This document shows positions 8,191 to 60,488 of a stretch of DNA of 64,000 nt, in pieces. The translations under genes were made by a program, and so were the position numbers. The DNA comes from Akkermansia muciniphila. Lineage in GTDB: Bacteria; Verrucomicrobiota; Verrucomicrobiia; Limisphaerales; UBA9464. The stretch is taken from positions 688-64,687 of the forward strand of contig CAMDJH010000002.1 in assembly GCA_945900455.1 (NCBI GenBank), in the 5' to 3' direction. Position 1 is the stretch's first letter. Each line of letters opens with the position of its first letter. Below the pieces are notes generated by a model. That model saw only the letters and a list, made by a program, of their open reading frames with translations. It was not told where the DNA came from and ran no database searches.

Positions 8191-9837
8191 TCAACAGCGT
8201 GAGAGACACGTTAGCAAGTACGGCAGCAATTGTTTTTTTCGCGAGACGATGCCGGCAAGTTCGTAGATCCCGGGCTCTTTCTCCGGATAATGAATTTGCG
8301 CGGTGAACGTCGGCTCACCGGCCACCAGCAACAAGGACGTTTGCTGACCCACGTCGGTAACCAAAAGCGCACTGAAAAAGTACCCATTGGCCGCGCGGTA
8401 ATGTCCCAATGCGGACCGGACCTCAGCGGCTCGTTTCCAGAACTGGTCGAATCCGAGTTCCTCGATCTGGGCGACGCTGAACCGGTTGGATCCCTCCACG
8501 TACTCCTTGCAATCCCCTGAAATTGCCTGCGCCGCCGGACGGGAGGTTAGAACGGATCCCGACGAGAACAACTTTTCCGTAAACTCGGTGGCATTCACCC
8601 CCGTCAGTTTTTCCAACCGAGAGAGAACCTCGACATCCCGCTGCGTTGTGGTCGGTGAGGTCAGATTCAACGTATCGGAGACAAGCCCCGCGAGCAGCAA
8701 TCCAGCCGTTGCCGTTGGCAATTCAATCGCACTCTGAAAGAAGCAATCCGCTACAATCGTGCTGGTGGAACCCACCGGTTCATTGCGGAAGAGGATCGGC
8801 TGTTGCGAACTGAACGTTCCGATCCGATGATGATCCAGGATCTCCAAGATCTCGACCTGATCCGCCCCGGGTACAGCCTGGGAGAATTCATTATGATCCA
8901 CGAGAATCAATCGCCGTTGCACTTTTTTCAAAAAATCGGATTTCGAAAGGATTCCAATCACCCGCCGGTCAGCGTCGAGCACCGGAAACGCTTGGAACTG
9001 CGATTCCGCGGCAAGCCGCTGAATGGTGCTCAAAATTTCGTCCTCTCCAAACGTCAGGTAGTCTTCGCGCAAGAGATGTTCCACCGCGATCGCAGACCGG
9101 GCTAGCATACAGGTGGTGGCCGAATCGTGGGGTGACAGCAAGAGCGACACCTCGTTCCGGCGGGCCAATTCACAAATATCCAGCGAGACCTCACGACCGC
9201 CGGTCACTACCAGAATTCGCACCCGACCTCCGATGGCTAGGCGCTGAATGTCATCGCGGTCACCGACCACCACCACGAGTTTTTCCGGCGAATAGGTGGC
9301 AAGGCGTTCCGCAAATGTGGCGGCCTTCATCGCCCCCACCATCAGGACGAGATCCTCCTCCCGATCGGCCTCAAACGCGCACAACATTTTGCCTTTGAGC
9401 GTGCGATTTAGGCTGCGAATGGAGGTCAGGATCCGACGGGAATCAAAAATGCGATTGAGGGATGGAAAGAAAAACTTGCTGGCCTTGAACACCGAAAGGA
9501 GGCCCTGGCATCGCCGGTCAGCGTCGAGCACGGGAAGCACCCGAATATTACGTTCATCCATCGTTGCTAGTGCCTCCACCACGCTGGTCCGCGGGGGCAC
9601 GGAAATGACGTTGGTCTGCATTACGTCCCGGACGCGCGGCGACACGTCCGCCACAAAACGCGGCGCCGGCACACCAAAAGTCCGCAGAATAAAATCAATC
9701 CGGTCGTTCGTTTCACCACAGCGCGCCGCCACCACATTCCGCATCCCGGTCCGCCGTTTGAACTCCGCATATCCGATGGCCGAGCAGATCGCATCTGCGT
9801 CCGGGTTTCGGTGTCCGATGACAAGCACCTCAGTCAT
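8191..9837 (-). CDS. CBS-domain-containing family II (DHH) inorganic pyrophosphatase
   Basis: DHH N-domain (VIGHRNPDADAICSA, DHN), inserted CBS pair plus DRTGG-like segment, and DHHA2 C-domain. Start moved to ATG 9837 (MTEVLVIGH). Confidence 0.85.
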   Translation of the reverse strand: MTEVLVIGHRNPDADAICSAIGYAEFKRRTGMRNVVAARCGETNDRIDFILRTFGVPAPRFVADVSPRVRDVMQTNVISVPPRTSVVEALATMDERNIRVLPVLDADRRCQGLLSVFKASKFFFPSLNRIFDSRRILTSIRSLNRTLKGKMLCAFEADREEDLVLMVGAMKAATFAERLATYSPEKLVVVVGDRDDIQRLAIGGRVRILVVTGGREVSLDICELARRNEVSLLLSPHDSATTCMLARSAIAVEHLLREDYLTFGEDEILSTIQRLAAESQFQAFPVLDADRRVIGILSKSDFLKKVQRRLILVDHNEFSQAVPGADQVEILEILDHHRIGTFSSQQPILFRNEPVGSTSTIVADCFFQSAIELPTATAGLLLAGLVSDTLNLTSPTTTQRDVEVLSRLEKLTGVNATEFTEKLFSSGSVLTSRPAAQAISGDCKEYVEGSNRFSVAQIEELGFDQFWKRAAEVRSALGHYRAANGYFFSALLVTDVGQQTSLLLVAGEPTFTAQIHYPEKEPGIYELAGIVSRKKQLLPYLLTCLSRC

Positions 9838-9911
9838 TGGCCCAATCTTGCCCACCCGGAGCGGAAGTCCAAGTTTCAATCTCGCCTCCCTGAATTCCGG
9901 CGGAACTTAAT

Positions 9912-13426: not shown

Positions 13427-13588
13427 CGGCGGTCGCTGGCGAGCAAGTCGCCCACGGATCTGGCTCGCCGGCACCTCCCAACACGGTTACGCAGAGTTAT
13501 TTCTGCGGCAACAGTGAATGCCATGAGCATGGGCTCATTTGGGAAGATTGGCGCCTCGTGCAGTGGCAGCGAGAAAAAGCCGGCACAA

Positions 13589-15829
13589 TCAACCGCGTGC
13601 TGTATCCGCTGCGTAACCCGTGATCCTCGAATGCATCGCCCGGGCGAGGTCTCCGCGCGGCCCACCCGATTCGTTGATCAGTTTCTCGAATCCAACCTGG
13701 GTCGTCACCAACAGCTTCGCTCCCAATGGCGAAACCACCCGAACTGTGGCCATTCTCGGACGAGCCTCCAGCAGCCCCACTTCCCCAAAATATTCACCGG
13801 AATGCAATGTCGCCACCGGGCGGTCTTCGCCACCGGCATCGCGCTGCGTGACACGGACTTCCCCTTCGATCAGAATAAAGAACCGATCCGCCGGCTCGCC
13901 TTCACGAATCAGAACTTCGTCGGGGACCGCCTGAAGTTGATCGAAGTATGGCAGCGCTTGGGTGGCGTTGCCCGCGCGAAACTTGGGGAGTGCCGCCATC
14001 AACGCGTCGGCCACCAACCGCTTGTTCACCACCCGGACCAATTCGTCACTGACAAAATCGTTCGTGGCCAGCAATTCGAGAAAGGTTTCCCGACTCAAGA
14101 CCAGCACCTCGACGCCTCCCGGCCCACCGCGAACGGTCGCGTTTCGTTTCGCATTTTGAATCAAACCAATCTCGCCAAAATAGTGCTGAACGGTAAGTCG
14201 CGCGAGCACCTGCGAGTCCAGTTCACCGCCCGCCGCTCGCGAAACCCGCACTTCGCCCCGGACAATCACGTAAAATGCGTCGGCGATGTCTCCTTCGGCA
14301 ATAATCGTCTCATTCTCAGCAAATTCCCGCCGGACAGCTTGATCCAACAGACGACGCACATCGGGATGTTCGGCTCCCGAAAATTCGGCCAAAATCTGGT
14401 CTTCATTTCGCCATCCATCGGTTGGCTGGCGATCCGTATCGATCCGGTGTCCAAGCACTTTTAATCGGAACTGACTGTCAGGGCCCGGCAACGGCTTGAC
14501 TTTGATCTTCAAACGGTAATCCGGGGGACTCTTTTCCAGGCGGAGCTCGTGGAGCAGGGTCGCCACCAGGGTCATAGCCATGGTCTCCACCATGCCCATG
14601 GCAGCACAGGTCCGGTGGGCGATTCCGAACGGGTGAAACGCGTCATTTTTCCCGTGCTCATTTCGAGGTGGGAGACAGCGCGCGGGATCAAACGTGTCCG
14701 GGTTCTTGAACGGTGTTTCCGAGAAGGCCATGGGCACCTGCGACAGGACGACGAGATCTCCCCGCTGGATTTGCTTCCCTTCCACGACGAAATCGCGCTC
14801 GCACAGGAACGGCATGCCCTGCGAAACGGGGTGGTAGCGCAGATTCTCGAGATACGTCGCGCGCAGCAGCTTCATCTGGCGCAGGTCGGCCGCGTCGTGG
14901 ACTCCCTGGCCAAAATGCGCGTCAACTTCCGCCGTCAGTTCCTGGCGCAGCTCCGGCCGGGATAGAATTTCATACAATAAAAATCCAATGAGCCGGCTCA
15001 TATAACAGCAGCTGCCGGCAAAGCCATAGCTGGCATAGCTCACCGCCGCATCGTCGTTAAACGACTCTCCCAAATCATCCCGAACCGCAAAGATCGTGTC
15101 CAGGATCGTCGGCGGATCCCCGGACGGGATGCCCGTCTTCCGGCGCTCACGAACCAGCCCCCACATCAATTCGAGCAATCGCCGTCGCGAACCCTGATAC
15201 CAGGGCATTCGGTAGAACCAGAAGGGCCAGATCCTCCCTCCGATATTCATGTTCCAGTTCATGATTCGCAGGATATCATCGTAATTCTTGGCCAACGACC
15301 GACCGCAAACGATCTGCGAATACATCTCGAACCCCAACCGTTCCGCCAAGTCCATGACCTCGTGAGTCGATCCCTCCCGCCAATCGCGAACGTGCTGGCG
15401 AACGATCGCAATGAGCTGAGGCACATGGCCTGAAGCAACTTCCCGGGAATAGACGGTATGCAGGACCCGCCGCAGGCGCTGATGGGACTCTCCACTGAGA
15501 CCCAGGATTACGGGCGAATCCCCGAGCTGCTGTCCCACTTTCTCAAAGACTGCCTTCCGCGAGAGATAGACGTCGTCCTGATGTTCCTTCAGGAACTTTC
15601 GCGCGGGAAATCCGGAGATGACCGAGTATTTCAGCCATAACGCGCGCAAGCGAAACACGGGCCCTAATTCGTCATGAGAACGCCGCAGCAAGGTGGTCGT
15701 ATTCTCCAGAAACTGGAACGTGTTTCCGAAAAATGGACATCCCTTGGCCAAAGGGGGCAAGGGAGCCGATGGACGGTTCGATCCCTGTTCTTCCGGACGG
15801 TTTGGGGGGCTTTCGCTCATAGAAGTCAC
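13589..15829 (-). CDS. Cytochrome P450 fused to two C-terminal cyclic-nucleotide-binding domains
   Basis: ExxR (ENLR) and haem-thiolate loop FHPFGIAHRTCAAMG. Two CNB barrels with phosphate-binding cassettes FGEIGLIQNAKRNATV and FGEVGLLEARPRMATV. Single uninterrupted 746-codon ORF. Confidence 0.8.
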   Translation of the reverse strand: MTSMSESPPNRPEEQGSNRPSAPLPPLAKGCPFFGNTFQFLENTTTLLRRSHDELGPVFRLRALWLKYSVISGFPARKFLKEHQDDVYLSRKAVFEKVGQQLGDSPVILGLSGESHQRLRRVLHTVYSREVASGHVPQLIAIVRQHVRDWREGSTHEVMDLAERLGFEMYSQIVCGRSLAKNYDDILRIMNWNMNIGGRIWPFWFYRMPWYQGSRRRLLELMWGLVRERRKTGIPSGDPPTILDTIFAVRDDLGESFNDDAAVSYASYGFAGSCCYMSRLIGFLLYEILSRPELRQELTAEVDAHFGQGVHDAADLRQMKLLRATYLENLRYHPVSQGMPFLCERDFVVEGKQIQRGDLVVLSQVPMAFSETPFKNPDTFDPARCLPPRNEHGKNDAFHPFGIAHRTCAAMGMVETMAMTLVATLLHELRLEKSPPDYRLKIKVKPLPGPDSQFRLKVLGHRIDTDRQPTDGWRNEDQILAEFSGAEHPDVRRLLDQAVRREFAENETIIAEGDIADAFYVIVRGEVRVSRAAGGELDSQVLARLTVQHYFGEIGLIQNAKRNATVRGGPGGVEVLVLSRETFLELLATNDFVSDELVRVVNKRLVADALMAALPKFRAGNATQALPYFDQLQAVPDEVLIREGEPADRFFILIEGEVRVTQRDAGGEDRPVATLHSGEYFGEVGLLEARPRMATVRVVSPLGAKLLVTTQVGFEKLINESGGPRGDLARAMHSRITGYAADTARG

Positions 15830-15940
15830 TTTATTTCAATTCTTCAGTAGTGCCCCATGGCTCCCCCGGAGTGTCCATCCACCGAACCCGGGGGCAACGC
15901 CGTAAGCAATCGGTTTTTGTCTCTCCGGGATTCACTTCGT

Positions 15941-16786: not shown

Positions 16787-19144
16787 GTGTTTCACCAATT
16801 TCTCCCTCCTGCCATCCGGCTTGCTGTTCCCGGAGTGCTGGTGATTCTTGCCGCGAGTCCTCTGGTGGGGCAATCCGTTGCTCGCCTCGACCCCCTCCTT
16901 CCCGGCTGGTTTCAGCGCGGCACGACCAATGAAATCGTGTTGCACGGCGAAAATCTGCGTGCGGTGCAATCGATTCGATTCAGCGGTGCTCCCGGCGTTA
17001 CGGCCAGCCTTGTTCCTGTCACGCCTCCGACCGTTCGATTAGAATCCTCCAACGGCGGGTTGACCGCGTCCGCGACCCCCGATGGAAAGGAAGTTCGGAT
17101 CCGGCTCCAGCTCGCGGCGGACGCCCCTTTGGGCTCCCGGGAATTGCGAACGGTCGGACCGAATGGATTCTCCAATCCTCTGACCATTCAACTGAGCGAC
17201 GTGCTGGAGTTGGTCGAACAACCTGGGACCACGGCCAAGAACACCGCGCCCGCCCTTCCCGTGCCCTGCGCGGTCAGCGGTGTCATTTCCCAAACGATCG
17301 AGGCCGACTGGTACCGCTTCGCCGGGTCGAAAGGGCAGCAAGTCCTCCTCGATGTGCAGGCGAACCGGTTCGGCTCGCGCCTGGATGCCACCCTGGTGGT
17401 CTATGACACGGCGGGCCGCGAACTTGGCCGTAGCGAGGATGCACACGGACTCGATCCGTTCTTGGAATTTGCTGTACCGTCCACCGGTGACTATTTCATC
17501 CGTCTCCAAGACGTCCGATTTCAAGGCAGCGGCCAGCATCGGTATCGAATGGTTCTCGGAGAACTTCCTTATCTCGAAGCGATCTTTCCATACGGCGGCC
17601 GGCGAGGAACGACCGTCTCACTCCAACTGGATGGCCGCCATCTCGATGGCGTGGACCGGATGCAGGTGTCCGTGGCCACCACCGCACCCTCCGGCACCCA
17701 GGACATCCGGTTACAAACGCGCCGCGGCTACTCCAACCCGCAACTCTTCGAAGCCGGCGATCTTCCAGAAATCGGCGAAATCGAGCCGAACAATCAGCCC
17801 GACTCGGCAAACCGGATCCAGATTCCGATCACGATCAATGCGCGAATTGGCGCCGACGCGGATACCGATCACTACCGCTTCACGTCGCCCTCGGATCAGC
17901 GCTGGATCTTGGAAGTTGGCGCCCGCCGTTTCGGTTCGCCGATGGACTCTCTCTTGGTGCTCATGGACCGTACCGGCAAGATTATTTCGCAGAACGACGA
18001 CGACGCCGGACCCGATGCCCGCATCGAGGCTGATTTAAAAAAGGATCAAGAATACGTCGTCGGAGTTCGCGATCTGACGGATCGCGGCGGGTCACGATTC
18101 GGCTACCGACTGACCATCAGGCCGTCTGTTGTGGAACCTGACTTTGGAGTTCGGATTTCCGATTCACGCTACCGATTGGCAGCGGGAGGGCACCTGGCGG
18201 TTCGGTGTGAACTCGACCGAAGGAATGGTTTTGCATCGGTCGTTCGGGTCGAAGCGGAGTCCTTGCCGACCGGTGTCACTTGCATACCCGCCATGTTTTC
18301 GCCGGAAAGCCCCGCGATGGCCTGGCTGATCCTGACCGCGGCGCCCAATGTTCCGCCGGGGCATCATGACCTGGCGGTTGTTGCCACCGGCGATCGGGAC
18401 GGGAAGCGACTTCGTCGAAGTCTGCAAGCTCAGTCGAATTTCCTCAGTATTATCCCTAAGCTACCCTTCGCGATGGACGCGCTGACGCCGATGGTCGAGC
18501 TCGACCAAAACGGGAGTGCCAGCCTTGACGTTCAGGTCACCCGATCGTCGGAGTTCTCCGGTGACGTCAAGGTCTTCGCCGAAGAACTGCCGGGCCTGAA
18601 TCTGCCTCCGATCACCATCCCCGCAGGACAATCTAGCGGCCGGTTCCAACTATCGGCAGGCAATAACAGTGAGGTATCCACACGGTGGCTCATGCTTTTC
18701 GCCATGGCACGGGTGGACGGACAAGATTTTACTGTTTATGCGCCGACCCCGGTGCCCGTGCGGACCAGGGCGATTCCTTTCTTTCTTGCCACGGCTCAGC
18801 CTCGTCTCTCCGTCACCGCTCTGCCCGTTGAACGGAAATCTCCGGCGGCCGCGGCGGAGTTGATCATTAAGATCGATCGCCGCGTCGGATTTACCAATGC
18901 GATCGAAACCTCGGTGGAAGGAATTCCCAACGGTGTGCAATTCAGCCTCGACCCCGTGGCAGCGAATTCCCGGGAAACTGTTCTGAAGCTGCTCGCGACG
19001 GAAAAGGCCCCCTCCGGGAAGGAGTTCGATTTGGTGATCACCGGGATGGCGATCCATCAGCAACGGCAATTTAAACTGAAATCCTCCGCGGTAAAACTCC
19101 TCATCGCGGCACCCGACGCGGAAACAGCTGCGGTCACAAAATGA
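16787..19144 (+). CDS. Secreted protein with repeated pre-peptidase C-terminal (PPC)-like domains
   Basis: Signal peptide present. Two units of the DWYRF/DHYRF ... G-S-x-L/MD-[AS]-x-L-V-[LV] ... D/E ... type are characteristic of PPC beta-sandwich domains. GTG start. Confidence 0.5.
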   Translation: MFHQFLPPAIRLAVPGVLVILAASPLVGQSVARLDPLLPGWFQRGTTNEIVLHGENLRAVQSIRFSGAPGVTASLVPVTPPTVRLESSNGGLTASATPDGKEVRIRLQLAADAPLGSRELRTVGPNGFSNPLTIQLSDVLELVEQPGTTAKNTAPALPVPCAVSGVISQTIEADWYRFAGSKGQQVLLDVQANRFGSRLDATLVVYDTAGRELGRSEDAHGLDPFLEFAVPSTGDYFIRLQDVRFQGSGQHRYRMVLGELPYLEAIFPYGGRRGTTVSLQLDGRHLDGVDRMQVSVATTAPSGTQDIRLQTRRGYSNPQLFEAGDLPEIGEIEPNNQPDSANRIQIPITINARIGADADTDHYRFTSPSDQRWILEVGARRFGSPMDSLLVLMDRTGKIISQNDDDAGPDARIEADLKKDQEYVVGVRDLTDRGGSRFGYRLTIRPSVVEPDFGVRISDSRYRLAAGGHLAVRCELDRRNGFASVVRVEAESLPTGVTCIPAMFSPESPAMAWLILTAAPNVPPGHHDLAVVATGDRDGKRLRRSLQAQSNFLSIIPKLPFAMDALTPMVELDQNGSASLDVQVTRSSEFSGDVKVFAEELPGLNLPPITIPAGQSSGRFQLSAGNNSEVSTRWLMLFAMARVDGQDFTVYAPTPVPVRTRAIPFFLATAQPRLSVTALPVERKSPAAAAELIIKIDRRVGFTNAIETSVEGIPNGVQFSLDPVAANSRETVLKLLATEKAPSGKEFDLVITGMAIHQQRQFKLKSSAVKLLIAAPDAETAAVTK

Positions 19145-20535
19145 GATCCTTCCCATCCCCCGCATTTCTTGATGTTCGGATACGAGCATCGGTGCTAGCC
19201 CTTGCCGCAAGTGTAGCGATCGAGTCGGCGGTGGCGGCTGACCCGGCCGTCTCGTGGTTTCGAGACGTCACCCCGCTCTTCAAGCGCTCGTGTAATGGTT
19301 GCCACAATCCGAACAAGCGGAAGGGTGAGGTCGACACCTCCACCTACGCCGGGTTTGTAAGGCCTGGAAAACAGGGTCCTAATTTCCTGGCGGGAGATCC
19401 GGCCAAATCACGTGTTCTCGAAGAAATAGCCGGCAAGGAACCCTCCATGCCGAAGGAGGGCGATCCTCTGACCGCGGCCGAAGTGAACCTCATCGAGCGC
19501 TGGATCCGCGAGGGTGCCAGGGACGATACCCCGGCGGATGCCTATTCCACCCGACTCAAGGAACCGCCCACGTATGGCGCCCCCCCGGTGATCACCAGCG
19601 TAGCGTTTTCACCCGATGGACGCTGGCTGGCAATTTCAGGCTATCACGAGGTGCTGCTGCACTCGACCACCGCGTTGCAACTCAAGACCCGGCTCGTGGG
19701 AGAATCACCGCGGATCGAATCGATGGCCTTTTCACCCGACAGCCATTGGCTAGCCGTCAGCGGTGGAGCGCCCGCTCGGTTTGGAGAATTGCAGATTTGG
19801 GACCCGGCCACCGGCGGACTCACCAACGGCTTTAAGATTGGCGGCGACTGCGTGTTCGGCGTCTCATGGTCCCCGGACTCTCAGCGATTGGCCTTCGGTG
19901 GCGCGGATAAATCGGCACGGGTCGTCGCCGCCATCGATGGAAAAGAGTTGATGAAATTCGACAACCATAGTGACTGGGTGTTTCGCACCGCATGGATGGA
20001 TGACGGGAAGCGAATGCTGAGCGGCAGCCGTGATCGAGCGATGAAATTGATCAATACAGCCAACGGCCAGTTCATCGACGATATCAACAAACTTCTCGAA
20101 CCCGTGGTTTCCATGGCCCGGCATCCCAAGGAGGAATGGGCAGCCTATGGAGGGGCCGAGGGGGGTGTTCGAGTCTACCGGATGAAGGAGAATCAGGAGC
20201 GGACTTCCGGGAACAATGACGTCAACCTTGTTCGCGAATTCGAACGGCAAACGGGCACGGCTCATTCCATCGCGTGGAGCCCCGATGGTTCTCTGCTCGC
20301 AGTGGGAAGCACCGGTGAGGTTCGCGTGTACCAATCCGCCGATGGGAAACGTTCCGCAACGTTGAAAGGTCATTCTGGCGCGATTTTTGCACTGGCGTTT
20401 TCATCCGACGGGAAACAGTTGGTGACCGGGGGGTTTGAGGGACTCGTCCGGGTCTTTGATCCCGCCACCGGCGTGCTCCAGGCCGTCTTTACGCCCGTAC
20501 CCGCCGGAGCCGCCAAGCAGGTCGCCGCCCAATAA
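19141..20535 (+). CDS. Planctomycete-type cytochrome c (PSCyt1) domain fused to WD40 beta-propeller
   Basis: N-terminal CNGCH haem-c motif in the FKRSCNGCHNP context. Multiple WD40-like repeats (AFSPDG..LA.GG). Start overlaps the upstream stop (ATGA). Confidence 0.75.
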   Translation: MRSFPSPAFLDVRIRASVLALAASVAIESAVAADPAVSWFRDVTPLFKRSCNGCHNPNKRKGEVDTSTYAGFVRPGKQGPNFLAGDPAKSRVLEEIAGKEPSMPKEGDPLTAAEVNLIERWIREGARDDTPADAYSTRLKEPPTYGAPPVITSVAFSPDGRWLAISGYHEVLLHSTTALQLKTRLVGESPRIESMAFSPDSHWLAVSGGAPARFGELQIWDPATGGLTNGFKIGGDCVFGVSWSPDSQRLAFGGADKSARVVAAIDGKELMKFDNHSDWVFRTAWMDDGKRMLSGSRDRAMKLINTANGQFIDDINKLLEPVVSMARHPKEEWAAYGGAEGGVRVYRMKENQERTSGNNDVNLVREFERQTGTAHSIAWSPDGSLLAVGSTGEVRVYQSADGKRSATLKGHSGAIFALAFSSDGKQLVTGGFEGLVRVFDPATGVLQAVFTPVPAGAAKQVAAQ

Positions 20536-20598
20536 ACCCGTGCCCGCCCCGACAATGAGCCATCACGCTCGCGATGGATCTATCGTTCTGATTTTTCA

Positions 20599-23538
20599 AT
20601 GAAGCCGACCCTTGCCCGATTTGCGTCCCTACCGAACTCCCGCATCGCTCGCTTTCTCGCCGGAGTGAGCCTTGCTTTCGCGGTGGGGACGTCGACCGCC
20701 GCACGAACTCCCTGGACCGAGTCCCGTGTCCTCGGCTCCCCGGAGCCTCCGGCCCCATACCGCACGAAACCCGCCTTTCCCAATCTACATTTCGAGAATC
20801 CAGTACATCTGGTTTCCGTTCCTGGCACCAGCCTTCTGTTCCTCGCCCAGCAGAATGGCCGGATCTACTCGTTTCCCGCCGACCGCAAAACCACGGTCAC
20901 AAATCTCGTCCTCAACCTTCGCGATCATCACCAACCGTTCGATGCAATCTACGGCATGACGTTTCATCCAAAGTTTCGTGAAAACGGATTTATCTACCTG
21001 GCCTATGTCGAACCCGGTGGCCGAGCCAATGGTTCCTATGTCTCCCGTTTCACAGTGACCTTGGAACCAACTCCTCGGATCGATCCCACGTCCGAACTGG
21101 TCATCCTTCAATGGCTTTCTGGCGGCCACAATGGCTGCGATCTTCAATTCGGTGCAGACGGCTACCTGTACATCTCAACCGGTGATGGCGCACCGCCGGA
21201 TCCGCCGGACACCCTGCGAACCGGACAGCGAGTGGACGATTTGCTCGCTTCCATTCTGCGAATCGACGTGGACCACGCCGCGGCCGGGCGCAACTACCGA
21301 ATCCCGTCGAGCAATCCGTTTGTCAAAACACCCGGTGCTCGCGGCGAAGTTTGGGCGTATGGTTTCCGTAATCCGTGGCGGATCAGTTTTGGACCGGACC
21401 ACGCGCTTTGGGTGGGGGACGTCGGCTGGGAGTTGTGGGAAATGCTGCACGTGGTCCGCAAGGGAGGGTACAACGCCGGCTGGAGTTACGTCGAAGGTCC
21501 CAATCCGGCGGTGCGATCGGATGTTCTGCCCGGTCCGACGCCCATTCACAAGGCTCTGATTGTCCATCCCCATAGCGAAGCATCGAGCATCACCGGTGGG
21601 TTGCATGTGCGGTCCCGAAGACTGCCCGCCCTGACAGGCCGTTATGTCTACGGCGATTGGGAAACCGGCAAATTCTGGGCCGTTCGGAACAAGCGCGACA
21701 CGGTCACGTCAATGATCGAACTCTGTGATACCACCCTGCGACCGATTGCGTTCGGTTACGATCCGAAAGGCGAGCTTCTGATCTTGGATTATTCGGGTGG
21801 TATTCACGAGTTCGTATTGAATGACAAGGCCCATGATCCCGCCCGCTTTCCGCGACGATTGAGCGCTACGGGAATCTTCGCCGACACGGCAACTCAACGG
21901 CCGACTGACGGCGTGGTGGAGTATCGCATCCAAGCGACGATGTGGTCCGATTATGCGACGGCACGGCGCTGGATCGCAGCTCCCGGGACCAACGTTCTGG
22001 TGCCCGGCGAGAAATGGGGTTATCCGGCGGACACCGTCCTAGCGAAGACGCTCGAGCTAGATCTGGAAGCTGGGAAGCCTGAGTCCCGACGCAAGATTGA
22101 AACCCAGCTGCTGCATTTCGACGGGCAAACCTGGCGCGCCTATTCCTACCGTTGGAATGACGCACAGACGGATGCCGAATTGGTGCCCGCGGGTGGGACG
22201 AATTCCGTGATCCGGGTCAAGGATGCCGCCTTTTCGGGTGGCATTCGCGAGCAGAACTGGCGCTTCGCCAGCGGGACGGAATGTCTCCGTTGCCACAACC
22301 CATGGCCCGGCAACACGCTGGGCATCACGCTCGATCAACTCAATACACGCCCGCTTCACGAAGGGGCGGCCACCGAGGCCGGCCGGTTCATGCAGCTAGG
22401 CATGCTCGCCCCGCCAACCAATGGACTGGCCCTGCCACGAATTGCGGATCCCTACGATAATGCGCTTCCCGCAACCCATCGCGCCCGGGCGTGGTTGCAT
22501 GTGAATTGCTCGGCCTGTCACCGATTCGGCGCGGGTGGATCCGTGGTGACCTTTCTTAATCAAGAGGTCGACGCGATGGGGACCCGGGCGATCGATCAAA
22601 AGCCGATCCGCGGCGAATTTGGACTGACGGCAGCGCGAGTGATCGCCCCGGGTGAACCCTCCCGATCGACTCTATACTATAGGATTAATACCGAGAGTTC
22701 CGGACACATGCCCCACATTGGAGCGCGATTGGTCGACGAGCGCGGCACCGCCGCAGTCCGCGACTGGATTCGATCGCTTCCCGAAATCGTCCCCACAAAT
22801 TCAACGCCTTTCGATCCGGACCTCGCGATTGCAAAGCGGCAAAGTGCGAGCATCGTTGCCGCCATTCGAAGGTTAGGAGGCGCAAGCGACGGCGCGGAGC
22901 GGACGAAGCTGGTCCAGCAACTGACATCAACTGCGAGTGGCGCGCTCGCGCTTCTGGAAATCCTGCCGACCTTGAGCACTCCGGACCTCATCGCGACCGC
23001 AGTCGCTTCGACGAATTCGTTCGCGCGTGATCTCTTTGAGCGATTCCTTCCGGCGGAGCAACGGCGGCATACCTTGGGGCCCCAATTCGATCGAAAAACC
23101 GTCCTTGCACTCACCGGCAATCCGGACCGCGGCCGGCGCCTCTTTTTTTCGGATGGGGGGCCGAATTGCAGCCGATGTCATGCGTTGGGCGGCCACGGAC
23201 GGGCCTATGGACCGAACTTGGCGGGCATTGCCAAAAAATACAAACCCGCTGAGCTCCTTGATCAATTGGTCAATCCGTCAAAAATCATCGCCCCGGAATT
23301 CACTCTACGGATGATCGAAACTCGGGACGGACTGGCCTATTCCGGTTTTACGATTCGGGAATCGGCCTCGCAGCTCGTATTGCGGACGGAGGATCTGAAA
23401 GAAATGGCCTTCACGAAGTCCGAGTTGGCGACCGCCGTGAAAGCGGCAACTTCAGCCATGCCGGAAGGGTTGATCGACATTTTTACCGCTCAGGAAGCGG
23501 CGGACCTGCTGTCGTACCTCCGTAATCAGCGACCTTGA
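20599..23538 (+). CDS. Glucose/sorbosone dehydrogenase-like beta-propeller fused to a domain with three CxxCH haem-c motifs
   Basis: SGDH motifs (GMTFHPKF, LLASILRIDVD, YGFRNPWR). CLRCH, CSACH and C-terminal CSRCH motifs. Confidence 0.72.
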   Translation: MKPTLARFASLPNSRIARFLAGVSLAFAVGTSTAARTPWTESRVLGSPEPPAPYRTKPAFPNLHFENPVHLVSVPGTSLLFLAQQNGRIYSFPADRKTTVTNLVLNLRDHHQPFDAIYGMTFHPKFRENGFIYLAYVEPGGRANGSYVSRFTVTLEPTPRIDPTSELVILQWLSGGHNGCDLQFGADGYLYISTGDGAPPDPPDTLRTGQRVDDLLASILRIDVDHAAAGRNYRIPSSNPFVKTPGARGEVWAYGFRNPWRISFGPDHALWVGDVGWELWEMLHVVRKGGYNAGWSYVEGPNPAVRSDVLPGPTPIHKALIVHPHSEASSITGGLHVRSRRLPALTGRYVYGDWETGKFWAVRNKRDTVTSMIELCDTTLRPIAFGYDPKGELLILDYSGGIHEFVLNDKAHDPARFPRRLSATGIFADTATQRPTDGVVEYRIQATMWSDYATARRWIAAPGTNVLVPGEKWGYPADTVLAKTLELDLEAGKPESRRKIETQLLHFDGQTWRAYSYRWNDAQTDAELVPAGGTNSVIRVKDAAFSGGIREQNWRFASGTECLRCHNPWPGNTLGITLDQLNTRPLHEGAATEAGRFMQLGMLAPPTNGLALPRIADPYDNALPATHRARAWLHVNCSACHRFGAGGSVVTFLNQEVDAMGTRAIDQKPIRGEFGLTAARVIAPGEPSRSTLYYRINTESSGHMPHIGARLVDERGTAAVRDWIRSLPEIVPTNSTPFDPDLAIAKRQSASIVAAIRRLGGASDGAERTKLVQQLTSTASGALALLEILPTLSTPDLIATAVASTNSFARDLFERFLPAEQRRHTLGPQFDRKTVLALTGNPDRGRRLFFSDGGPNCSRCHALGGHGRAYGPNLAGIAKKYKPAELLDQLVNPSKIIAPEFTLRMIETRDGLAYSGFTIRESASQLVLRTEDLKEMAFTKSELATAVKAATSAMPEGLIDIFTAQEAADLLSYLRNQRP

Positions 23539-29259: not shown

Positions 29260-29967
29260 CTATTTCGTTCCCGCTTTTTCATCGCCGTCGCGGGTTACCT
29301 TCCAACTGGGATCCAGTTCAGCGGTGAAAATCTCGGAAGCCAATTTGGGATTGCGAACGGCATTGCGAAAATCGTTTTTCAACCTCGAACCGTCCGCAAA
29401 TCGCAGTTCCGTGCTCAACAGGGAGTAGTCCGCTTTCGCCAGGCCGATTCCTAGTTCGGGCAGGAATTTCCGGGCCCCCCGGCTTTTGGGCCGAAGTCGG
29501 ATCAACCATCGGACTTCCGATTCCACAATGCCGAGGACTTCAAATCGTCGATAGAACTCGCGTGAATCGCGGGGGAAACCGGCGTCGAAAAGACCCCACG
29601 CGTCTCGCATCGGTCCGGGAGTTCCCTCGGTCAGTCGGTGCTTCTCCGCCCGCCGGAGCCTCGGCACGAGGACGGTCAGTTCCGGGCCCTGACGGAGGGC
29701 CAGAGTTTGCACCGGATTGCCGAGTTCCCAACGAAAGAAGTCGGGATATTGGAACCAAACCTTTCCGTCCGAGGTGAGCGGATGGGTCAGGGCCTTCAGG
29801 TCCCGCGTTTGGGTGAACTCGGCGTGCCAACTCGTGAGGTTGGACTGCGCCCCGAGCCACGCAGCGATCACGGAATTCGTATCCAGTCCCCGCGCCGATC
29901 CGAATCCGCAGTCGAGGATCGTCAAAATTACGAAGAGAGCGACCCGGCCTGGACTGAACCTCGACAC
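29260..29967 (-). CDS. LolA-like outer-membrane lipoprotein carrier family protein
   Basis: F-Q-T ... G-K-V-W-F ... P-x-x-F-R-W-E pattern of the LolA fold. Start taken at the GTG that overlaps the upstream TAG stop at 29967. Confidence 0.65.
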   Translation of the reverse strand: MSRFSPGRVALFVILTILDCGFGSARGLDTNSVIAAWLGAQSNLTSWHAEFTQTRDLKALTHPLTSDGKVWFQYPDFFRWELGNPVQTLALRQGPELTVLVPRLRRAEKHRLTEGTPGPMRDAWGLFDAGFPRDSREFYRRFEVLGIVESEVRWLIRLRPKSRGARKFLPELGIGLAKADYSLLSTELRFADGSRLKNDFRNAVRNPKLASEIFTAELDPSWKVTRDGDEKAGTK

Positions 29968-32900
29968 TACTTCGCCGCCGGTGTCCCGTTTATCCAGACT
30001 GGAACGAAATGAAACCATTGATCCGGATGCTGCCGAAGCAACGGCTCAAAGGCACGCACGATTCGAGCGGTGAATTCCGTCCGGCCGTCGCGACTCCCGA
30101 GTAAAGCCCGGTCGTACATCGCTGCAGGAAGGGCATGGACTTTGTAGGAGCTGCCTTCACGGAGAATGGCCACGGGTACGACCTGACATCCCGTGGCACG
30201 CGCGAGTTCGGCCGCGGCCGGCGAGGCTCTAAGAATCCGGCCAGCGAGTGAGACCTCCACCGCGTGCCGCGGGTCGGGGCGATCCAGCAGCAGCGCCACG
30301 AATCCTCCCGATTGGAGATGCTGAATTACTCCGACAAAAGCAAACGGGTCAGCCCCAACAATCAGCGTGTCGACTCCCGCCCGGGCCCGGGCCGCGGCCC
30401 GCTGCTCGGTAAACCTCGCGCCGCCCGGTTCCGGTGCAGAAAGCACCAATAATCTACGCCCGCTCGCGGCGACAAAGGGAGCGCCAAACTCCCAGTTGCC
30501 AAGATGCAGCGTCACCAGCAGCACTCCCTGGCCGGATTGAACTCCAGCGTGGAAGTGTTCCCAACCCGATCCCGCAGTCACCAGTATGTCCTGCCGGCAG
30601 CCAGCCTCGTACCGCCAAAGATCCACCAATTTGATGCAGAATTGCCTTAGATTTCGACGGGCAGCGCGGCGTGCGGCTCCGGGATCGTCGCCGACCCAGG
30701 GCAGCAAGTTTGCTTCCACGATCCTCAGTCGCTGTGAGGCGAACGTTCCGTATAGCCAACCCGCGCCACACGCAAGGGTCGTCGCGAGGCCCCGCGGCAG
30801 TGTGTGAACCACCCAGAGTCCAAGGTTCCAGAAATAGGATTGGTAGAGCTTGGAAGGCCCTTCAATCTTCGAATCCGGAAAGCACCGGTCCCACCAGCGC
30901 CACCACGACGGTAGGAGCCCCAAGGCCACGACGACGACGCTGGCCGTGCCGGCGGAACATACCGCACCCAGGCTCGCCAATCCGGAGTTACCCGACCACG
31001 CCAACGAGCCGAAACCTACCATGGTGGTCAGGGCGCACAACACGAGCGCCCGCGCTGTGGAACGCCACAAACACCGCCCGTCACCCCCGTGCCGTCGTAA
31101 CGTGAGTTGCACATGGATCGAATAATCAACGCCGCATCCCAGTAGTAGGGGCCAGGCCACGAGGTTTATCAAATTCCACTGCGCCCCGAGCAAGACCATT
31201 CCCACCTGCAGGAGGATCAGTGCCAACCCGAGAGCCGCCGCTCCAAGAATAACTTCACGCCACCGCCCAAAGGCAAAACGAAGGCAACCGAAGCACGCCA
31301 CGATCAAAAAGGTGGTGAGCCCCACAACCCGCCCTCGGCTGTGCTGCAGCAATTCATCGCCCAACAGTGACCAACCGGTCAGTCCCGCACCGCGGGCGTG
31401 CAGTTCAGCGACAAGGTCTCCGGATCGAAAGCGCGAACCTGGCTCAACAAACCCCAACGCCAACCAGTTGGTTCCCGTGCGGGCCGCGAATTGACTCGTC
31501 AACCAACGCACAAATGGGTTGTCGGGCCACACTGGATCCGGGATCCCCTCTGACCCCCATTTCGTCCATGCCCCAAGGATGCCGTCCGTGAGTGCGAGAG
31601 AATTCGACGTGAATCCAGCCGCCACGCCTGCCCTCAGCACTTCATCCCGCCTTCGGCCCAACAATTCAAGCGCACTGCGATTTTGACCCTGGTGCCTCGG
31701 GTTCGGCCATACCCCTCCCGGCAGCCGATACTGTACCAATTCACCCCGCCCCTTTCGCGCCTCGAGCAATGGCCCCAGTTCCAACATCGTTTCCGCCACA
31801 GTCTGCGCATTCGTCCCGTTGATCAGGAGCATCAAGGGTTCGTTGGTGAGACCCAACGCCGGACGCAATGCGTCCATCGCGTTGTAAGCCGGACTGTTCC
31901 GTGGCCGGAGTGGCTCCGACGATGCCGTCAGAACTGGCCAACCTCTCCAGACCAATGTTCCGCACGAAAACACGACGAGAAAAACCGTCGCCGCCAGCAT
32001 CCAACGATCTGCGCCGTCCTCCCGGGAACGGGTGACGCCCCCGCCCGACGTCGGGTCCGCAGCGACCCGCCGCCTCGAATCCCCATCCGCAATAGCCACG
32101 CCCGTGGCTCGAGCTCTCGGAAGGAACACGAAGAGCATGACAATGGCCCCGAGCACGACGCCGATGGCCGTAAGGACCCCCAACTGGGACAGCCCGGGCA
32201 ACCCGGCTCCGGTTAATGTCAAAAACGCCAGTGCGGTTGTCGCAGCCGACCACCCTATCCCAGATCGGAGTTCCCGGCGCAGATCCAGGATTGGCATCGA
32301 GCGATGTTCCAATGATTCCTGGTAGGCCACCAATCCGTAGTCCACGCAAAGCCCGAGGAGAATCGCCGCGAAACCGATGCTGACCACATTGAGTGTGCCA
32401 AGGATAAGCCCACCGATTGCCAGGGTACCTGCCAGAACAAGGAGAAGTGCCGCGGCGAGCCATAGCATCGGTCGCCATGCCCGGTGCGCGAGCCAGAAGA
32501 GACTCGCTATCAAGAGCAGAGTGCTCACCGTGCTGCCTGCAAGATCCCGCTCCATTCCGGACGCGATCTCCGCCAAAAACGCCGGCCCGCCTGTGTAGGC
32601 AACCGTCACAATCTCCGTCCCGCGGGTCCCGTCGGGGACAACCCGACTGACGACGTCCGTCACCTCGCGCCGAATTGCGCCCAACCAGCGCGCCACAGAC
32701 CGGTAGCCGCCGGTGGCCTCGACCGGCATCACACGAATAATTCGGAATCGCTCGTCGTCGGAGGCAAAGAGTCGGTTCGCGTCCCCGGAGAACCCAGCAT
32801 CCCCGCCCAGCGACGGCAAGCGGGTCATTCCAAGCGGGTCATAACTGAAGCGTCCGAGATCCTCGGGCGAAAGCCCGGTGGCCAGTTGCTCACGGGCGAG

Positions 32901-33302
32901 GGCAAATGCCGCCTCCAGATTTCCAGACTGCAATCGGGAACCAAGATCGGCCACCGCACCTGGCGGTTGATTGCGCCAAGCCCAGGCCAGGAATTCCGCC
33001 AGATCCCCCGGGCGCTCGTAGGCGGGCGACTGCCACCATGCCGAACTCACCAGGTTCGATCGCCCGCGCAGCGCCTGAGTAATCTCTCGGGCGAGCGTCG
33101 CCAACCGCTCGGGATCCTCTCCCTGCAAGGTCACCAGGAGTTCTCGAGTACCGCTGAAATATTTCTGTTGCCATTGAAGAGCGGAAACGGACGGCAACTG
33201 CGGCGGGAGTAGCCCAAGAATTTCCGCGTCAAAGCGGAGACGTCCGAGTCCCACAATCGCGACAAATGCGAGAAGCAATCCCCATGCCCAGGCACGTTTC
33301 AT
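29967..33302 (-). CDS. MMPL/RND-type exporter fused to LpxL/HtrB-type lysophospholipid (lipid A) acyltransferase
   Basis: 1111 aa. Two blocks of about 6 TM helices with large loops (MMPL architecture) occupy residues 1 to about 790. The C-terminal 300 aa carry the acyltransferase motif HLGNWE (codon about 933) and the LLDRPD region. Confidence 0.72.
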   Translation of the reverse strand: MKRAWAWGLLLAFVAIVGLGRLRFDAEILGLLPPQLPSVSALQWQQKYFSGTRELLVTLQGEDPERLATLAREITQALRGRSNLVSSAWWQSPAYERPGDLAEFLAWAWRNQPPGAVADLGSRLQSGNLEAAFALAREQLATGLSPEDLGRFSYDPLGMTRLPSLGGDAGFSGDANRLFASDDERFRIIRVMPVEATGGYRSVARWLGAIRREVTDVVSRVVPDGTRGTEIVTVAYTGGPAFLAEIASGMERDLAGSTVSTLLLIASLFWLAHRAWRPMLWLAAALLLVLAGTLAIGGLILGTLNVVSIGFAAILLGLCVDYGLVAYQESLEHRSMPILDLRRELRSGIGWSAATTALAFLTLTGAGLPGLSQLGVLTAIGVVLGAIVMLFVFLPRARATGVAIADGDSRRRVAADPTSGGGVTRSREDGADRWMLAATVFLVVFSCGTLVWRGWPVLTASSEPLRPRNSPAYNAMDALRPALGLTNEPLMLLINGTNAQTVAETMLELGPLLEARKGRGELVQYRLPGGVWPNPRHQGQNRSALELLGRRRDEVLRAGVAAGFTSNSLALTDGILGAWTKWGSEGIPDPVWPDNPFVRWLTSQFAARTGTNWLALGFVEPGSRFRSGDLVAELHARGAGLTGWSLLGDELLQHSRGRVVGLTTFLIVACFGCLRFAFGRWREVILGAAALGLALILLQVGMVLLGAQWNLINLVAWPLLLGCGVDYSIHVQLTLRRHGGDGRCLWRSTARALVLCALTTMVGFGSLAWSGNSGLASLGAVCSAGTASVVVVALGLLPSWWRWWDRCFPDSKIEGPSKLYQSYFWNLGLWVVHTLPRGLATTLACGAGWLYGTFASQRLRIVEANLLPWVGDDPGAARRAARRNLRQFCIKLVDLWRYEAGCRQDILVTAGSGWEHFHAGVQSGQGVLLVTLHLGNWEFGAPFVAASGRRLLVLSAPEPGGARFTEQRAAARARAGVDTLIVGADPFAFVGVIQHLQSGGFVALLLDRPDPRHAVEVSLAGRILRASPAAAELARATGCQVVPVAILREGSSYKVHALPAAMYDRALLGSRDGRTEFTARIVRAFEPLLRQHPDQWFHFVPVWINGTPAAK

Positions 33303-33826
33303 GGGGCCGCGACCTCCAGCGATTCGCCCGTCCGTCTATCGTTGAGATGCCAACGGCCATTCGCGTCAAATACAACTTCCCAACGTGATTTTGCGGATAC
33401 TTTCGGCGGAAGGCCGTCGATCTGAAACCAAAGCACATGTTCCGGTACCGGAAGGCGGCCTGTAAATCCCCTGCCCTTCATCGGCGATGAAATCCGCCAG
33501 AGCGACCCCTCTGTCCGAGCGATCACCAGTGGGAGCGATTGTTTGCTAAATTGCACAAAACGCCGGCCGTCCAGATGGGTGGCGATTAGAAGTTCTCCCA
33601 CAAGCTCGGGCGCAGTACGGGAGGGCCGCCACACCGCAGGCCGCTCCGTCACCTGCCAACCCGGTTGCAGCAGGTCCACGGGTTCGACCAGCGACACGGA
33701 CCGGCAGCCACAGACCCACAGGCACACGATGAACCCGAACACGGCACCCCGCCCCGCCCCACGTCTCGAGTCCCCAACACCCGCGTCCTGGAACTGCGGG
33801 CGCCACGAATGAAGCTCCGTCCTCAC
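33299..33826 (-). CDS. Small putative lipoprotein, in the position equivalent to DUF3261 of aryl-polyene clusters
   Basis: Hydrophobic stretch plus Cys (FGFIVCLWVCGC). GTG start overlaps the upstream TGA (GTGA at 33823-33826) and the stop overlaps the next ATG (ATGA). An alternative GTG start lies at 33742. Confidence 0.42.
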   Translation of the reverse strand: MRTELHSWRPQFQDAGVGDSRRGAGRGAVFGFIVCLWVCGCRSVSLVEPVDLLQPGWQVTERPAVWRPSRTAPELVGELLIATHLDGRRFVQFSKQSLPLVIARTEGSLWRISSPMKGRGFTGRLPVPEHVLWFQIDGLPPKVSAKSRWEVVFDANGRWHLNDRRTGESLEVAAP

Positions 33827-45106: not shown

Positions 45107-45190
45107 GCGGTTCCTTTGATCTGTGACGACTCCAACTCTCAACTGAAGACGCCGGGAACTCAAGCGCGGATACCGTCCGTGCGGGTCCAA

Positions 45191-45997
45191 TTACCCATTC
45201 AACTCACACGCCACGCCGCGAACATCCATTTCGAACTCGATCTCCAACACCGGAGGACGGGAAATGTGCCAGCAAAGTCCGTGGCGCGCCGCAGGTCCGA
45301 TCGTGTCGAGCAGCTGTCGGCGCAAGGACTCTTCCAGAGAGTGCACCGTGTAGAGGTCGACTGCAGTCGCTCGATCCCAACTCACCCCAAGGCCGTTCAA
45401 ACGATCCGTCATCACCCCGAGAACGTAGGCCGACTTTTCCAACATGGCGCCCGGCGACACATCGCCGCGTCGAACCACCCCCTGCGACTCCAGGATTCCT
45501 TCCCGCAATTCTCCTGCGCCCGCCACGATGAATGTCGGGCGCTTCCGATCGGCATTCGGGCGGACGAATGAAAACGCATGCAGCGAAACCGAGGTGGGCG
45601 GGTTCGTCAGGGGTGCGACATTGGTGCGTGCGATTGGATTCACCCCATTCACGAGCAGTTTCCATTGCTGCAACACGTCCCGATATCCGCGATTAAACTC
45701 AATGAACCCATCCATGTCGAACGGTTGAGGCGAACGCAGTTCCATCGCGCAGAGAGCCCCGCGCCCCAAGACCGCGCGACGCAGCGTGTCGTCAACGTAC
45801 GCGAAACCTTCTCGCCACGGTATCAGGGCAGGAAGCGTCACGCGCACGATTTCCCATCCCGGATCGGCCACCACGCCACACGAGTAGGGTTCGATACCCG
45901 CAAGGAATCGGTAATGACCGGAGAGATTGTTTGCCAGCATGTGGAAAAATTCAGTTCGGGTGGATATTTCGCCAAAAATCGACCGACGAAAAGCCAC
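45191..45997 (-). CDS. Hypothetical protein, possibly a two-domain YjgF/RidA-like fold
   Basis: 268-aa ORF and first gene of the minus-strand cluster. It abuts the next ORF. The fold suggestion is weak. Confidence 0.4.
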   Translation of the reverse strand: MAFRRSIFGEISTRTEFFHMLANNLSGHYRFLAGIEPYSCGVVADPGWEIVRVTLPALIPWREGFAYVDDTLRRAVLGRGALCAMELRSPQPFDMDGFIEFNRGYRDVLQQWKLLVNGVNPIARTNVAPLTNPPTSVSLHAFSFVRPNADRKRPTFIVAGAGELREGILESQGVVRRGDVSPGAMLEKSAYVLGVMTDRLNGLGVSWDRATAVDLYTVHSLEESLRRQLLDTIGPAARHGLCWHISRPPVLEIEFEMDVRGVACELNG

Positions 45998-60478: not shown

Positions 60479-60488
60479 CGCTTTGGAG

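Follow-up and report, generated by a model that had tools for sequence, protein, structure and literature searches.

A cytochrome P450 fused to two cyclic-nucleotide-binding domains in a Verrucomicrobiota genome, with an I-helix that lacks the usual acid-alcohol pair

In this article, I consider a single gene on a stretch of DNA from Akkermansia muciniphila (GTDB lineage Bacteria; Verrucomicrobiota; Verrucomicrobiia; Limisphaerales; UBA9464), namely positions 688 to 64,687 of the forward strand of contig CAMDJH010000002.1 in NCBI GenBank assembly GCA_945900455.1; these 64,000 nucleotides are the window, and all coordinates below refer to it. The gene is an open reading frame (ORF) on the minus strand whose product carries a cytochrome P450 domain followed by two domains of the kind that bind cyclic nucleotide monophosphates (cNMPs), here called CNB domains. 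It was first picked out by a reading of the letters and translations alone (the original prediction), and the computational follow-up described here places it in a widespread bacterial family that combines near-invariant nucleotide-binding cassettes with an altered I-helix. The features of the gene, with AlphaFold2 (AF2) model confidence given as the predicted local distance difference test (pLDDT), are as follows.

13589..15829, minus strand: whole ORF, P450-CNB-CNB fusion protein, 746 codons from GTG at 15829
14447..15757, minus strand: cytochrome P450 domain, about residues 25-461, E-class fold, by Pfam PF00067, phmmer, AF2 and Foldseek
15557..15559, minus strand: Arg91, where the B' helix begins, a residue found in the CNB-fused clade and not in its canonical relatives
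14993..15025, minus strand: I-helix segment GFAGSCCYMSR, residues 269-279, with G272-S273-C274-C275-Y276 over the canonical A-G-x-D-T
14837..14848, minus strand: K-helix ExxR (ENLR, residues 328-331), with E328 and R331 invariant in 46/46 sequences
14594..14638, minus strand: haem-thiolate loop FHPFGIAHRTCAAMG (residues 398-412), Cys408 invariant, Ala410 in place of the canonical Gly at Cys+2
14375..14446, minus strand: interdomain linker, residues 462-485, whose 10-residue blocks have mean pLDDT of 79 and 68
14012..14374, minus strand: cNMP-binding domain A, about residues 486-606, its long B/C helix running into domain B
14132..14179, minus strand: phosphate-binding cassette A, FGEIGLIQNAKRNATV (residues 551-566), by motif and family conservation
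13664..13972, minus strand: cNMP-binding domain B, about residues 620-722, followed by C-terminal helices to residue 745
13742..13789, minus strand: phosphate-binding cassette B, FGEVGLLEARPRMATV (residues 681-696), by motif and family conservation
13583..13600, minus strand: weak terminator-like hairpin overlapping the stop codon, a consensus match only

The reading frame is unbroken from end to end, as had been predicted, and because an in-frame TGA at 15836-15838 bounds it upstream, translation must begin at either the GTG at 15829 or the ATG at 15820. The ATG is the one chosen in public gene calls, for a product of 743 residues; the identical 743-residue protein has been called on three contigs, two of them from different samples in the European Nucleotide Archive, and in more than 120 homologous clusters the alignment runs collinearly from the P450 into the CNB domains. 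The motifs quoted in the original prediction (ENLR, FDPARC, the haem-thiolate loop, GFAGSCCYMS and the two cassettes) are all found where they had been placed. Since the N-terminal 24 residues are polar, Pro-rich and free of any hydrophobic segment, and since residues 1-18 of the AF2 model have pLDDT below 50 (residue 14 excepted), the modelled protein looks soluble and cytosolic.

The P450 and cNMP-binding domains

Both predicted domain types are supported by Pfam. The PF00067 p450 profile matches residues 25-437 at 119.6 bits against a cut-off of 22.8 (E 1.9e-34) and is spanned from position 1 to 440 of its 462, as a member of the P450 superfamily should span it, and PF00027 cNMP_binding matches as two domains at 123.6 bits against a cut-off of 27.5 (E 3.2e-36). 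The closest solved structure is the haem domain of the bacterial CYP51 of Methylococcus (phmmer against the PDB, 6mi0, E 2.9e-21), with the closest solved P450s lying at E 1e-21 to 1e-18, while Foldseek matches the AF2 model to 6mcw (CYP51) with a template-modelling (TM) score of 0.85 on the target at 21% identity, and to BM3 and CYP120 structures at about 0.8. The model, built for the full chain with the family alignment, has a pLDDT of 87.2 and a predicted TM score of 0.86, values that suggest a defined and fixed interdomain arrangement in the fusion protein.

Every residue class required for holding haem is kept in the predicted P450 domain (Cys408, the ExxR, Arg384 and His116/Arg120). In the 46-sequence alignment the meander Arg384, within FDPARC at 380-385, is invariant (46/46), as is Arg120, and His116 occurs in at least 90%, the last two lying in the region equivalent to the C-helix; the haem-thiolate loop, PFGIAHRTCAA, has invariant Cys408, Gly402 and Pro400 with Arg406 in 45/46 sequences, and departs from the consensus FxxGxRxCxG only at Cys+2, where Gly has become Ala410. 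By sequence and fold the closest P450s are bacterial CYP51 (the Methylococcus capsulatus CYP51-ferredoxin fusion), CYP120A1 and the haem domain of P450 BM3, but identity to these is only about 19-21%, far below the conventional limit of about 40% for a CYP family, and in contrast to CYP51 there is neither a counterpart to the AGHHT segment nor a fused redox domain. On these comparisons, the domain is a relative of the CYP51, CYP120 and BM3 enzymes and not a member of a named family. Membership of CYP51 itself was considered and rejected (21% identity to the best CYP51 structure, I-helix AGHHT unmatched), as was membership of CYP152, for which the only match has E 0.0016 and covers the generic C-terminal core. 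Nor is the protein a self-sufficient fusion of P450 and redox partner in the manner of CYP102, CYP116B or CYP51-ferredoxin: Pfam gives only PF00067 and PF00027, and among its matches there is no fused FMN/FAD reductase, flavodoxin or Fe-S domain.

The CNB tandem resembles that of the eukaryotic kinases, in that a single unbroken alignment pairs residues 494-716 with the two CNB domains of PKA RI-alpha (phmmer, E ~3e-17), a separate pairwise comparison with RI-alpha gives an approximate identity of 29%, and the family profile matches PKG and the PKA regulatory subunit (PKA-R) at E 2e-61 to 1e-37. In PKA and CAP, the cassette Glu contacts the ribose 2'-OH and the Arg contacts the phosphate. Conservation was counted in 53 members, non-redundant below 60% identity: cassette A has Gly552 in 53/53, Glu553 in 51/53 and Arg562 in 52/53, and cassette B has Glu683 and Arg692 each in 52/52 of the sequences with a residue at that position, while Gly525 and Gly656, which the alignment places in the beta2-beta3 loops, are present in all 53. 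Taken together, the cassette Gly, Glu, Arg and Ala and these two glycines reach 94-100% conservation in each domain, even among members as distant as about 26% overall identity, and Thr, Asn or Ser predominates directly after the cassette Arg, which does not show which nucleotide binds. The original prediction had called both cassettes intact, and such near-invariance not only agrees with it but shows the two predicted cassettes to be under strong purifying selection. CNB domains that do not bind cNMPs are described as carrying non-canonical cassettes, and the cassette Arg as having co-evolved with the beta2-beta3 loop Gly as an allosteric relay (PMC2246266). Because the cassettes here are canonical and Gly525 and Gly656 are kept throughout, both marks of a genuine cNMP sensor, the canonical cassette and the co-evolving Gly, are present in the predicted tandem. 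The protein is not a CRP/FNR transcription factor, since Pfam finds no helix-turn-helix (HTH) and the CRP-type models of NCBIfam match the CNB part only, far below their cut-offs.

The I-helix and the clade that shares it

A word-indexed search returned 82 clusters (31-64% identity); PF00067 and PF00027 occur together in 81, and the full-length members measure about 700-790 residues. An exhaustive search of 1.84 billion representatives yielded single-stretch, full-length matches down to about 26% identity. The family was located at 30 genome loci, all in metagenome-assembled genomes (the scan took one genome per species) and distributed over five phyla or classes: Verrucomicrobiota (Limisphaerales and Verrucomicrobiales at 62-64% identity, Chthoniobacterales at about 50%), Acidobacteriota (Terracidiphilus, Luteitalea), Gemmatimonadaceae, Ectothiorhodospiraceae and Phycisphaerae. 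The P450-CNB family is large and ancient and belongs to soil and freshwater bacteria. The architecture is already visible in databases, since automated pipelines label members 'cytochrome P450/CRP-like cAMP-binding protein'. How common it might prove had been left to a search, and the answer is a split one, rare in the literature but a large family in nature: no study of a P450/cNMP-domain fusion was found in the full-text literature, a coverage outside which most subscription journals lie, and a 2007 census of CNB architectures makes no mention of P450 (PMC2246266), in keeping with the original prediction, which was aware of no characterised P450 gated by fused cNMP sensors.

The original prediction also held that in GFAGSCCYMS (residues 269-278) the acid-alcohol pair, D/E-T, is replaced by Cys-Cys. 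The pair is indeed absent, and the A/G-G-x-D/E-T pattern that is typical, if not universal, of O2-activating monooxygenase P450s is not found, but the better-supported register lies one residue further on, at Cys275-Tyr276, and the Cys-Cys pair (274-275) is confined to the seven closest clusters, P0001-P0007. The evidence for this register is an hhalign comparison, together with a count of residues along the CYP51 alignment made by phmmer. When a profile of the fused clade (122 sequences) is aligned with one of its nearest standalone relatives (36 sequences of about 450 residues, 28% identity), the match (hhalign, E 3e-120) runs without a gap through the whole I-helix and sets the canonical A-G-L-D-T on G272-S273-C274-C275-Y276, with Asp on Cys275, Thr on Tyr276 and the canonical Asn, three residues past the Thr, on Arg279. 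The phmmer alignment, whose register is that of the original prediction, matches FAG to FAG at the cost of a gap of one residue behind the Thr; with the gap closed, it returns the same register as hhalign, and DSSP assigns an unbroken helix over residues 259-290 of the AF2 model. Because the profile-profile alignment is ungapped and the modelled helix continuous, the better-supported register is the one in which Tyr276 would replace the catalytic Thr and Cys275 the acid. Outside the closest subclade, position 274 is C, A, V, L, S or I and position 275 is S, A, C or I, never D or E within the Tyr-type clade, and the conserved feature of the aligned I-helices is Tyr276 with Arg279, not Cys-Cys. 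To my knowledge, no characterised P450 has Tyr where the I-helix Thr normally stands, and none was found in the full-text literature, within the coverage given above. In P450 structures this position lies over the distal haem face, and Tyr is much bulkier than Thr.

The association between fusion and altered I-helix was counted over 169 P450 domains, with the presence of CNB domains scored by hidden Markov model (HMM; 125 with, 44 without). The acid-alcohol pair is absent from 123 of the 125 CNB-bearing proteins, 117 of these 123 having both Tyr276 and Arg279, whereas AG-x-D/E-T/S is present in 36 of the 44 that lack CNB domains; at least one of the eight CNB-less exceptions is a fragment of a fused protein (P0116, which is labelled 'partial' and clusters with a 713-residue member), and P0103 (429 residues) may be another. 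A comparison of non-redundant sets of 54 fused and 33 canonical sequences leaves only four residues that the fused clade conserves and the canonical clade lacks: Tyr276 (100%), Arg279 (91%), Ala410 (91%) and Arg91 (76% in the fused clade, 0% in its canonical relatives). All four lie in regions that in P450s belong to the surroundings of the haem or to a substrate-recognition site. These columns show a predicted distal pocket that has been remodelled clade-wide to Tyr/Arg/Arg, with Ala beside the thiolate, and a neighbour-joining (NJ) tree splits the Tyr clade from the canonical clade with a bootstrap of 174/200.

Several relatives depart from the common architecture. Within the Tyr clade, P0177 (667 residues) ends in a START lipid-binding domain instead of CNB domains, and P0090 (981 residues) has a hydrophobic N-terminal extension of about 256 residues that looks multi-pass and is followed by P450-CNB-CNB; judged from their sequences, the two are weak hints of a hydrophobic or lipid-like substrate. 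P0115 (1239 residues) begins with an extra P450-like domain in which Gly stands for the haem Cys (PFGVGPQSGFGAG), followed by a Tyr-type P450, which keeps its Cys loop, and two CNB domains, and the extra domain looks like a degenerate pseudo-P450. A P450-only homologue, P0074 (L031 6001-7581; 526 residues, 50% identity, Tyr-type I-helix), is neighboured by an IS1595 transposase, a PemK toxin gene, a PSD1 fragment and a split SSF transporter, and because it adjoins a transposase and gene fragments it looks like a copy truncated by rearrangement. Finally, a sister branch of the same P450 group, mostly with canonical I-helices, contains fusions of an N-terminal GPP34 (GOLPH3-like) domain to P450 among the relatives P0196, P0211, P0232 and P0083, of which P0211 and P0232 keep AGxDT and P0196 has AGAHT. 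The GPP34-P450 architecture has been reported as specific to sponge symbionts, and GPP34 is a domain that binds phosphatidylinositol 4-phosphate in eukaryotes (PMC11706023). Like the fusion described here, these proteins join a P450 to a ligand-binding domain without a redox role, but the partner is the N-terminal GPP34 domain and CNB domains are lacking.

Genomic surroundings

The fusion gene lies 111 nucleotides from a same-strand N_methyl prepilin-type gene upstream and is flanked on the other side by a convergent gene for a DUF554 membrane protein, with housekeeping genes around them (ffh, parA, yidC and a nadB-like gene). Partners were sought among 40 of 48 selected window ORFs of at least 120 residues, every large ORF of the window being included, and no ferredoxin, P450-type reductase or nucleotide cyclase was found among them, so that the original observation of no adjacent ferredoxin or reductase gene stands; on the contigs of the distant members P0081 and P0082 there is likewise no ferredoxin, reductase or cyclase. 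When the ORFs of the 30 genome loci and the window were compared all against all by BLASTP and clustered, no neighbour was conserved across the 31 loci, and the only clusters present in more than five loci were the gene itself and its antisense shadow ORFs. Such antisense ORFs lie inside the gene here as well (for example window 13514-14464, plus strand, 316 residues), and their apparent 'conservation' from locus to locus only mirrors that of the sense gene in DNA of high GC content and is no evidence for an overlapping gene.

Neighbours do recur within subclades (the genes that follow were named by eye from sequence, not by HMM): a cytidylate kinase and a putative aminotransferase at Limisphaerales-type loci; an FMN-dependent alpha-hydroxy-acid dehydrogenase-like protein, an acyltransferase_3-like membrane protein and an aminotransferase at Chthoniobacterales loci; and a convergent ABC1/UbiB-like kinase at Acidobacteria loci. 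They are best explained as synteny between close relatives. Because no neighbour recurs beyond this synteny and the distant members are likewise without partners, the P450-CNB gene appears to be a stand-alone unit that gives no pathway clue. Many bacterial P450 genes have no redox-partner genes beside them, and since unlinked partners are so common, the missing reductase is weak evidence.

Other parts of the window deserve a brief record. On the minus strand at 29260-35169 a one-strand run encodes a LolA-like protein, a 1111-residue fusion of MMPL and lipid-A-acyltransferase domains, a 243-residue ORF without a Pfam match and a Trp-halogenase/FAD_binding_3-like protein, a set that we take to resemble aryl-polyene or flexirubin-type clusters for lipid biosynthesis and export. 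Secreted or haem proteins of the type seen in the Planctomycetes-Verrucomicrobia-Chlamydiae (PVC) group are encoded on the plus strand at 16787-23538 and 60450-62894, namely a PPC-domain protein (785 residues), a WD40 propeller with an N-terminal CNGCH (CxxCH-type) motif, a GSDH and cytochrome c fusion (979 residues) and a PSCyt1-PSCyt2-PSD1 protein (814 residues). Such proteins fit a genome of Verrucomicrobiota/Planctomycetota type, and the PSCyt1/PSCyt2/PSD1, GSDH-cytochrome c and N_methyl prepilin-type genes, taken with the closest homologues of the fusion protein, point to a chromosome from Verrucomicrobiota. At 42573-45997 (minus) three consecutive ORFs of 420, 452 and 268 residues have no Pfam match at E <= 1e-4, and at 8191-9879 (minus) there is a CBS-DRTGG-DHH-DHHA2 protein of 562 residues with an inserted nucleotide-sensing module, unrelated to the P450-CNB gene and with a domain set that we presume typical of CBS-regulated family II inorganic pyrophosphatases.

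What the fusion protein may do

The reading that I favour, tentatively and as something just short of an even bet, is that of a cNMP-gated haem-thiolate enzyme of the P450 fold with altered oxygen chemistry. Cyclic AMP (cAMP), cyclic GMP (cGMP) or a related cNMP would bind both CNB domains, and binding would rearrange the B/C helices and the linker and thereby relieve or impose autoinhibition of the P450, a switch proposed on the model of PKG, Epac and Pat, the cAMP-gated acetyltransferase of mycobacteria. Since the proton relay is lost, catalysis in the remodelled distal pocket would probably not activate O2 through the standard proton relay, and would most likely proceed instead by peroxide-driven chemistry, rearrangement of an already oxygenated substrate, or O2 activation assisted by the substrate or by Tyr; the substrate would probably be anionic and amphipathic and held by Arg91 and Arg279. 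A second-messenger-regulated P450 and a non-monooxygenase P450 had both been put forward in the original prediction, and although the Cys-Cys pair proved not to be a family feature, both proposals are strengthened because the cassettes are near-invariant in 53 members and the loss of AGxDT tracks the CNB-fused clade. A more specific version, in which the nucleotide repositions the I-helix or the linker so that Tyr276 leaves the haem or changes its hydrogen bonds and a redox-partner-independent reaction (of peroxygenase, isomerase or dehydratase type) proceeds on an anionic, lipid-like substrate clamped by Arg91 and Arg279, I regard as doubtful in its full detail. If it held, the protein would found a class of P450s under direct second-messenger control, bacterial cAMP/cGMP signalling would gain a haem-thiolate oxidative output, and the Thr-to-Tyr distal pocket would enlarge the repertoire of P450 mechanisms.

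The combined reading draws on three known kinds of protein that the P450-CNB family joins, namely CNB-gated enzymes, P450 fusions and P450s without the acid-alcohol pair. Among the first, PKG, Epac and mycobacterial Pat (Rv0998/MSMEG_5458) likewise have a canonical CNB domain fused to a catalytic domain with presumed cNMP allostery, and the NCBIfam Pat model matches the CNB region here (E 2.4e-19, 69 bits against an equivalog cut-off of 460), but the output in our case is a haem-thiolate P450 instead of a kinase, guanine nucleotide exchange factor or acetyltransferase, and the CNB tandem is C-terminal to the enzyme, whereas in PKG, Epac and Pat it precedes the catalytic domain. The PKA regulatory subunit likewise has two consecutive CNB domains joined by a long B/C helix, but its N-terminal region consists of a docking/dimerisation domain and an inhibitor segment, whereas here residues 1-461 are the P450 domain, with no separate N-terminal region and with the partner fused in cis. 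As to the third kind, P450s without the acid-alcohol pair include the CYP152 peroxygenases (I-helix Arg-Pro), the CYP74 allene oxide synthases, CYP8A1/CYP5A1 and EryF; as in CYP152, the I-helix of the P450-CNB family carries an Arg close to the missing pair, but there is no specific sequence relationship to any of these enzymes and they are not regulated by fused sensors.

Several observations weigh against the combined reading. The cassette sequence does not tell cAMP from cGMP or from pyrimidine cNMPs, and no cyclase, partner or pathway gene is conserved beside the fusion gene at the 31 loci or on the P0081 and P0082 contigs. The Fisher p of 1e-26 for the association between CNB domains and the lost acid-alcohol pair is inflated by shared ancestry, the 123/125 representing one or two evolutionary events and not independent replicates, and the bootstrap for the Tyr clade falls to 116/200 (58%) once the I-helix columns are removed. 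Because only four P450 positions distinguish the clade, its redox-partner face is not detectably changed in the alignments, and ferredoxin and reductase may still be used in trans. Finally, two CNB-fused members, P0081 and P0108, keep AGxDT, and therefore fusion does not require an altered pocket; both join the Tyr clade in the observed unrooted NJ tree, with weak support (82/200), which would fit an order of events in which fusion came first and the pocket was remodelled later.

The most serious competing explanation is that of a conventional monooxygenase, dependent on redox partners encoded elsewhere and also regulated by cNMP, in which the hydroxyl of Tyr276 or a group on the substrate does the work of the Thr alcohol. 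Precedent exists in EryF, where a substrate hydroxyl takes that role in proton delivery; in addition, the remainder of the P450 domain is nearly indistinguishable from its AGxDT relatives, with the C-helix His/Arg, the ExxR and the Cys loop all kept, partner genes are often unlinked in bacteria, and P0081 and P0108 demonstrate that CNB fusion is compatible with a canonical I-helix. I nevertheless consider it unlikely, given that the acid has gone as well as the alcohol (with no member of the Tyr-type clade restoring D or E at position 275), that the Gly-to-Ala change beside the thiolate and the two gained Arg go beyond a like-for-like swap, and that so bulky a side chain as Tyr would lie over the distal haem face.

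Two further explanations question the nucleotide or the catalysis, respectively. The CNB domains might bind a small molecule other than a cNMP, or serve as a structural, dimerisation or substrate-handling module, and CNB folds are indeed known that bind haem and chlorophenolic compounds (PMC2246266), or nucleosides in the case of trypanosome PKA (PMC10959531); the lack of a linked cyclase gene among the window ORFs scanned points the same way. Set against the non-canonical cassettes of the known non-cNMP binders (PMC2246266), the 94-100% conservation of the cassette Arg, Glu and Gly-rich turn in both domains, even at about 26% identity, makes this rather improbable. There is a slimmer chance still that the haem-thiolate domain is a gas or redox sensor, or a pseudo-enzyme, working through a Cys/Tyr ligand switch as part of a signalling or cNMP-buffering protein. 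By geometry, a residue as bulky as Tyr in place of the Thr could fill the distal site or act as a ligand there, the 31 loci show no linked pathway genes, and the Cys-less P450 domain of P0115 demonstrates that catalysis can be lost; that domain, however, is a separate, extra one beside a Tyr-type domain with an intact Cys loop, Pfam detects no output domain (HTH, kinase, cyclase or phosphodiesterase) in the protein, and the conserved Arg91 and Arg279 fit substrate binding.

An anti-phage role, as the effector of a Pycsar-like system in which a cNMP-binding domain is fused to a toxic effector, is so remote that it was rejected. Pycsar effectors are reportedly transmembrane or TIR proteins, and although PADLOC gives weak matches of the CNB region to the PycTIR and PycC models (47 and 39 bits), these cover the generic CNB fold only, no cyclase is adjacent in the window or at the 30 loci, no neighbour is conserved and the window context is one of housekeeping genes. 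The notion that two separate genes were joined by assembly error or frameshift is effectively refuted, with no evidence for an artefact found, by the identical product on three contigs, by the same collinear fusion in more than 120 clusters from many samples and phyla, and by the one P450-only homologue examined (P0074), which looks truncated and not like an ancestral split.

P450s are controlled mainly through transcription, substrate binding and the supply of redox partners, and we know of none that a second messenger controls directly by way of a fused sensor. If such control holds here, oxidative haem chemistry would join the outputs of bacterial cyclic-nucleotide signalling. The family would also offer a natural template for ligand-switchable P450 biocatalysts and, because the catalytic Thr has given way to an invariant Tyr and two Arg have been gained, a natural experiment on oxygen activation. 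Furthermore, members of the P450-CNB family abound in phyla of soil and fresh water that are hard to culture (Verrucomicrobiota, Acidobacteriota and Gemmatimonadota), and the function of the family may therefore bear on how these bacteria respond to environmental signals.

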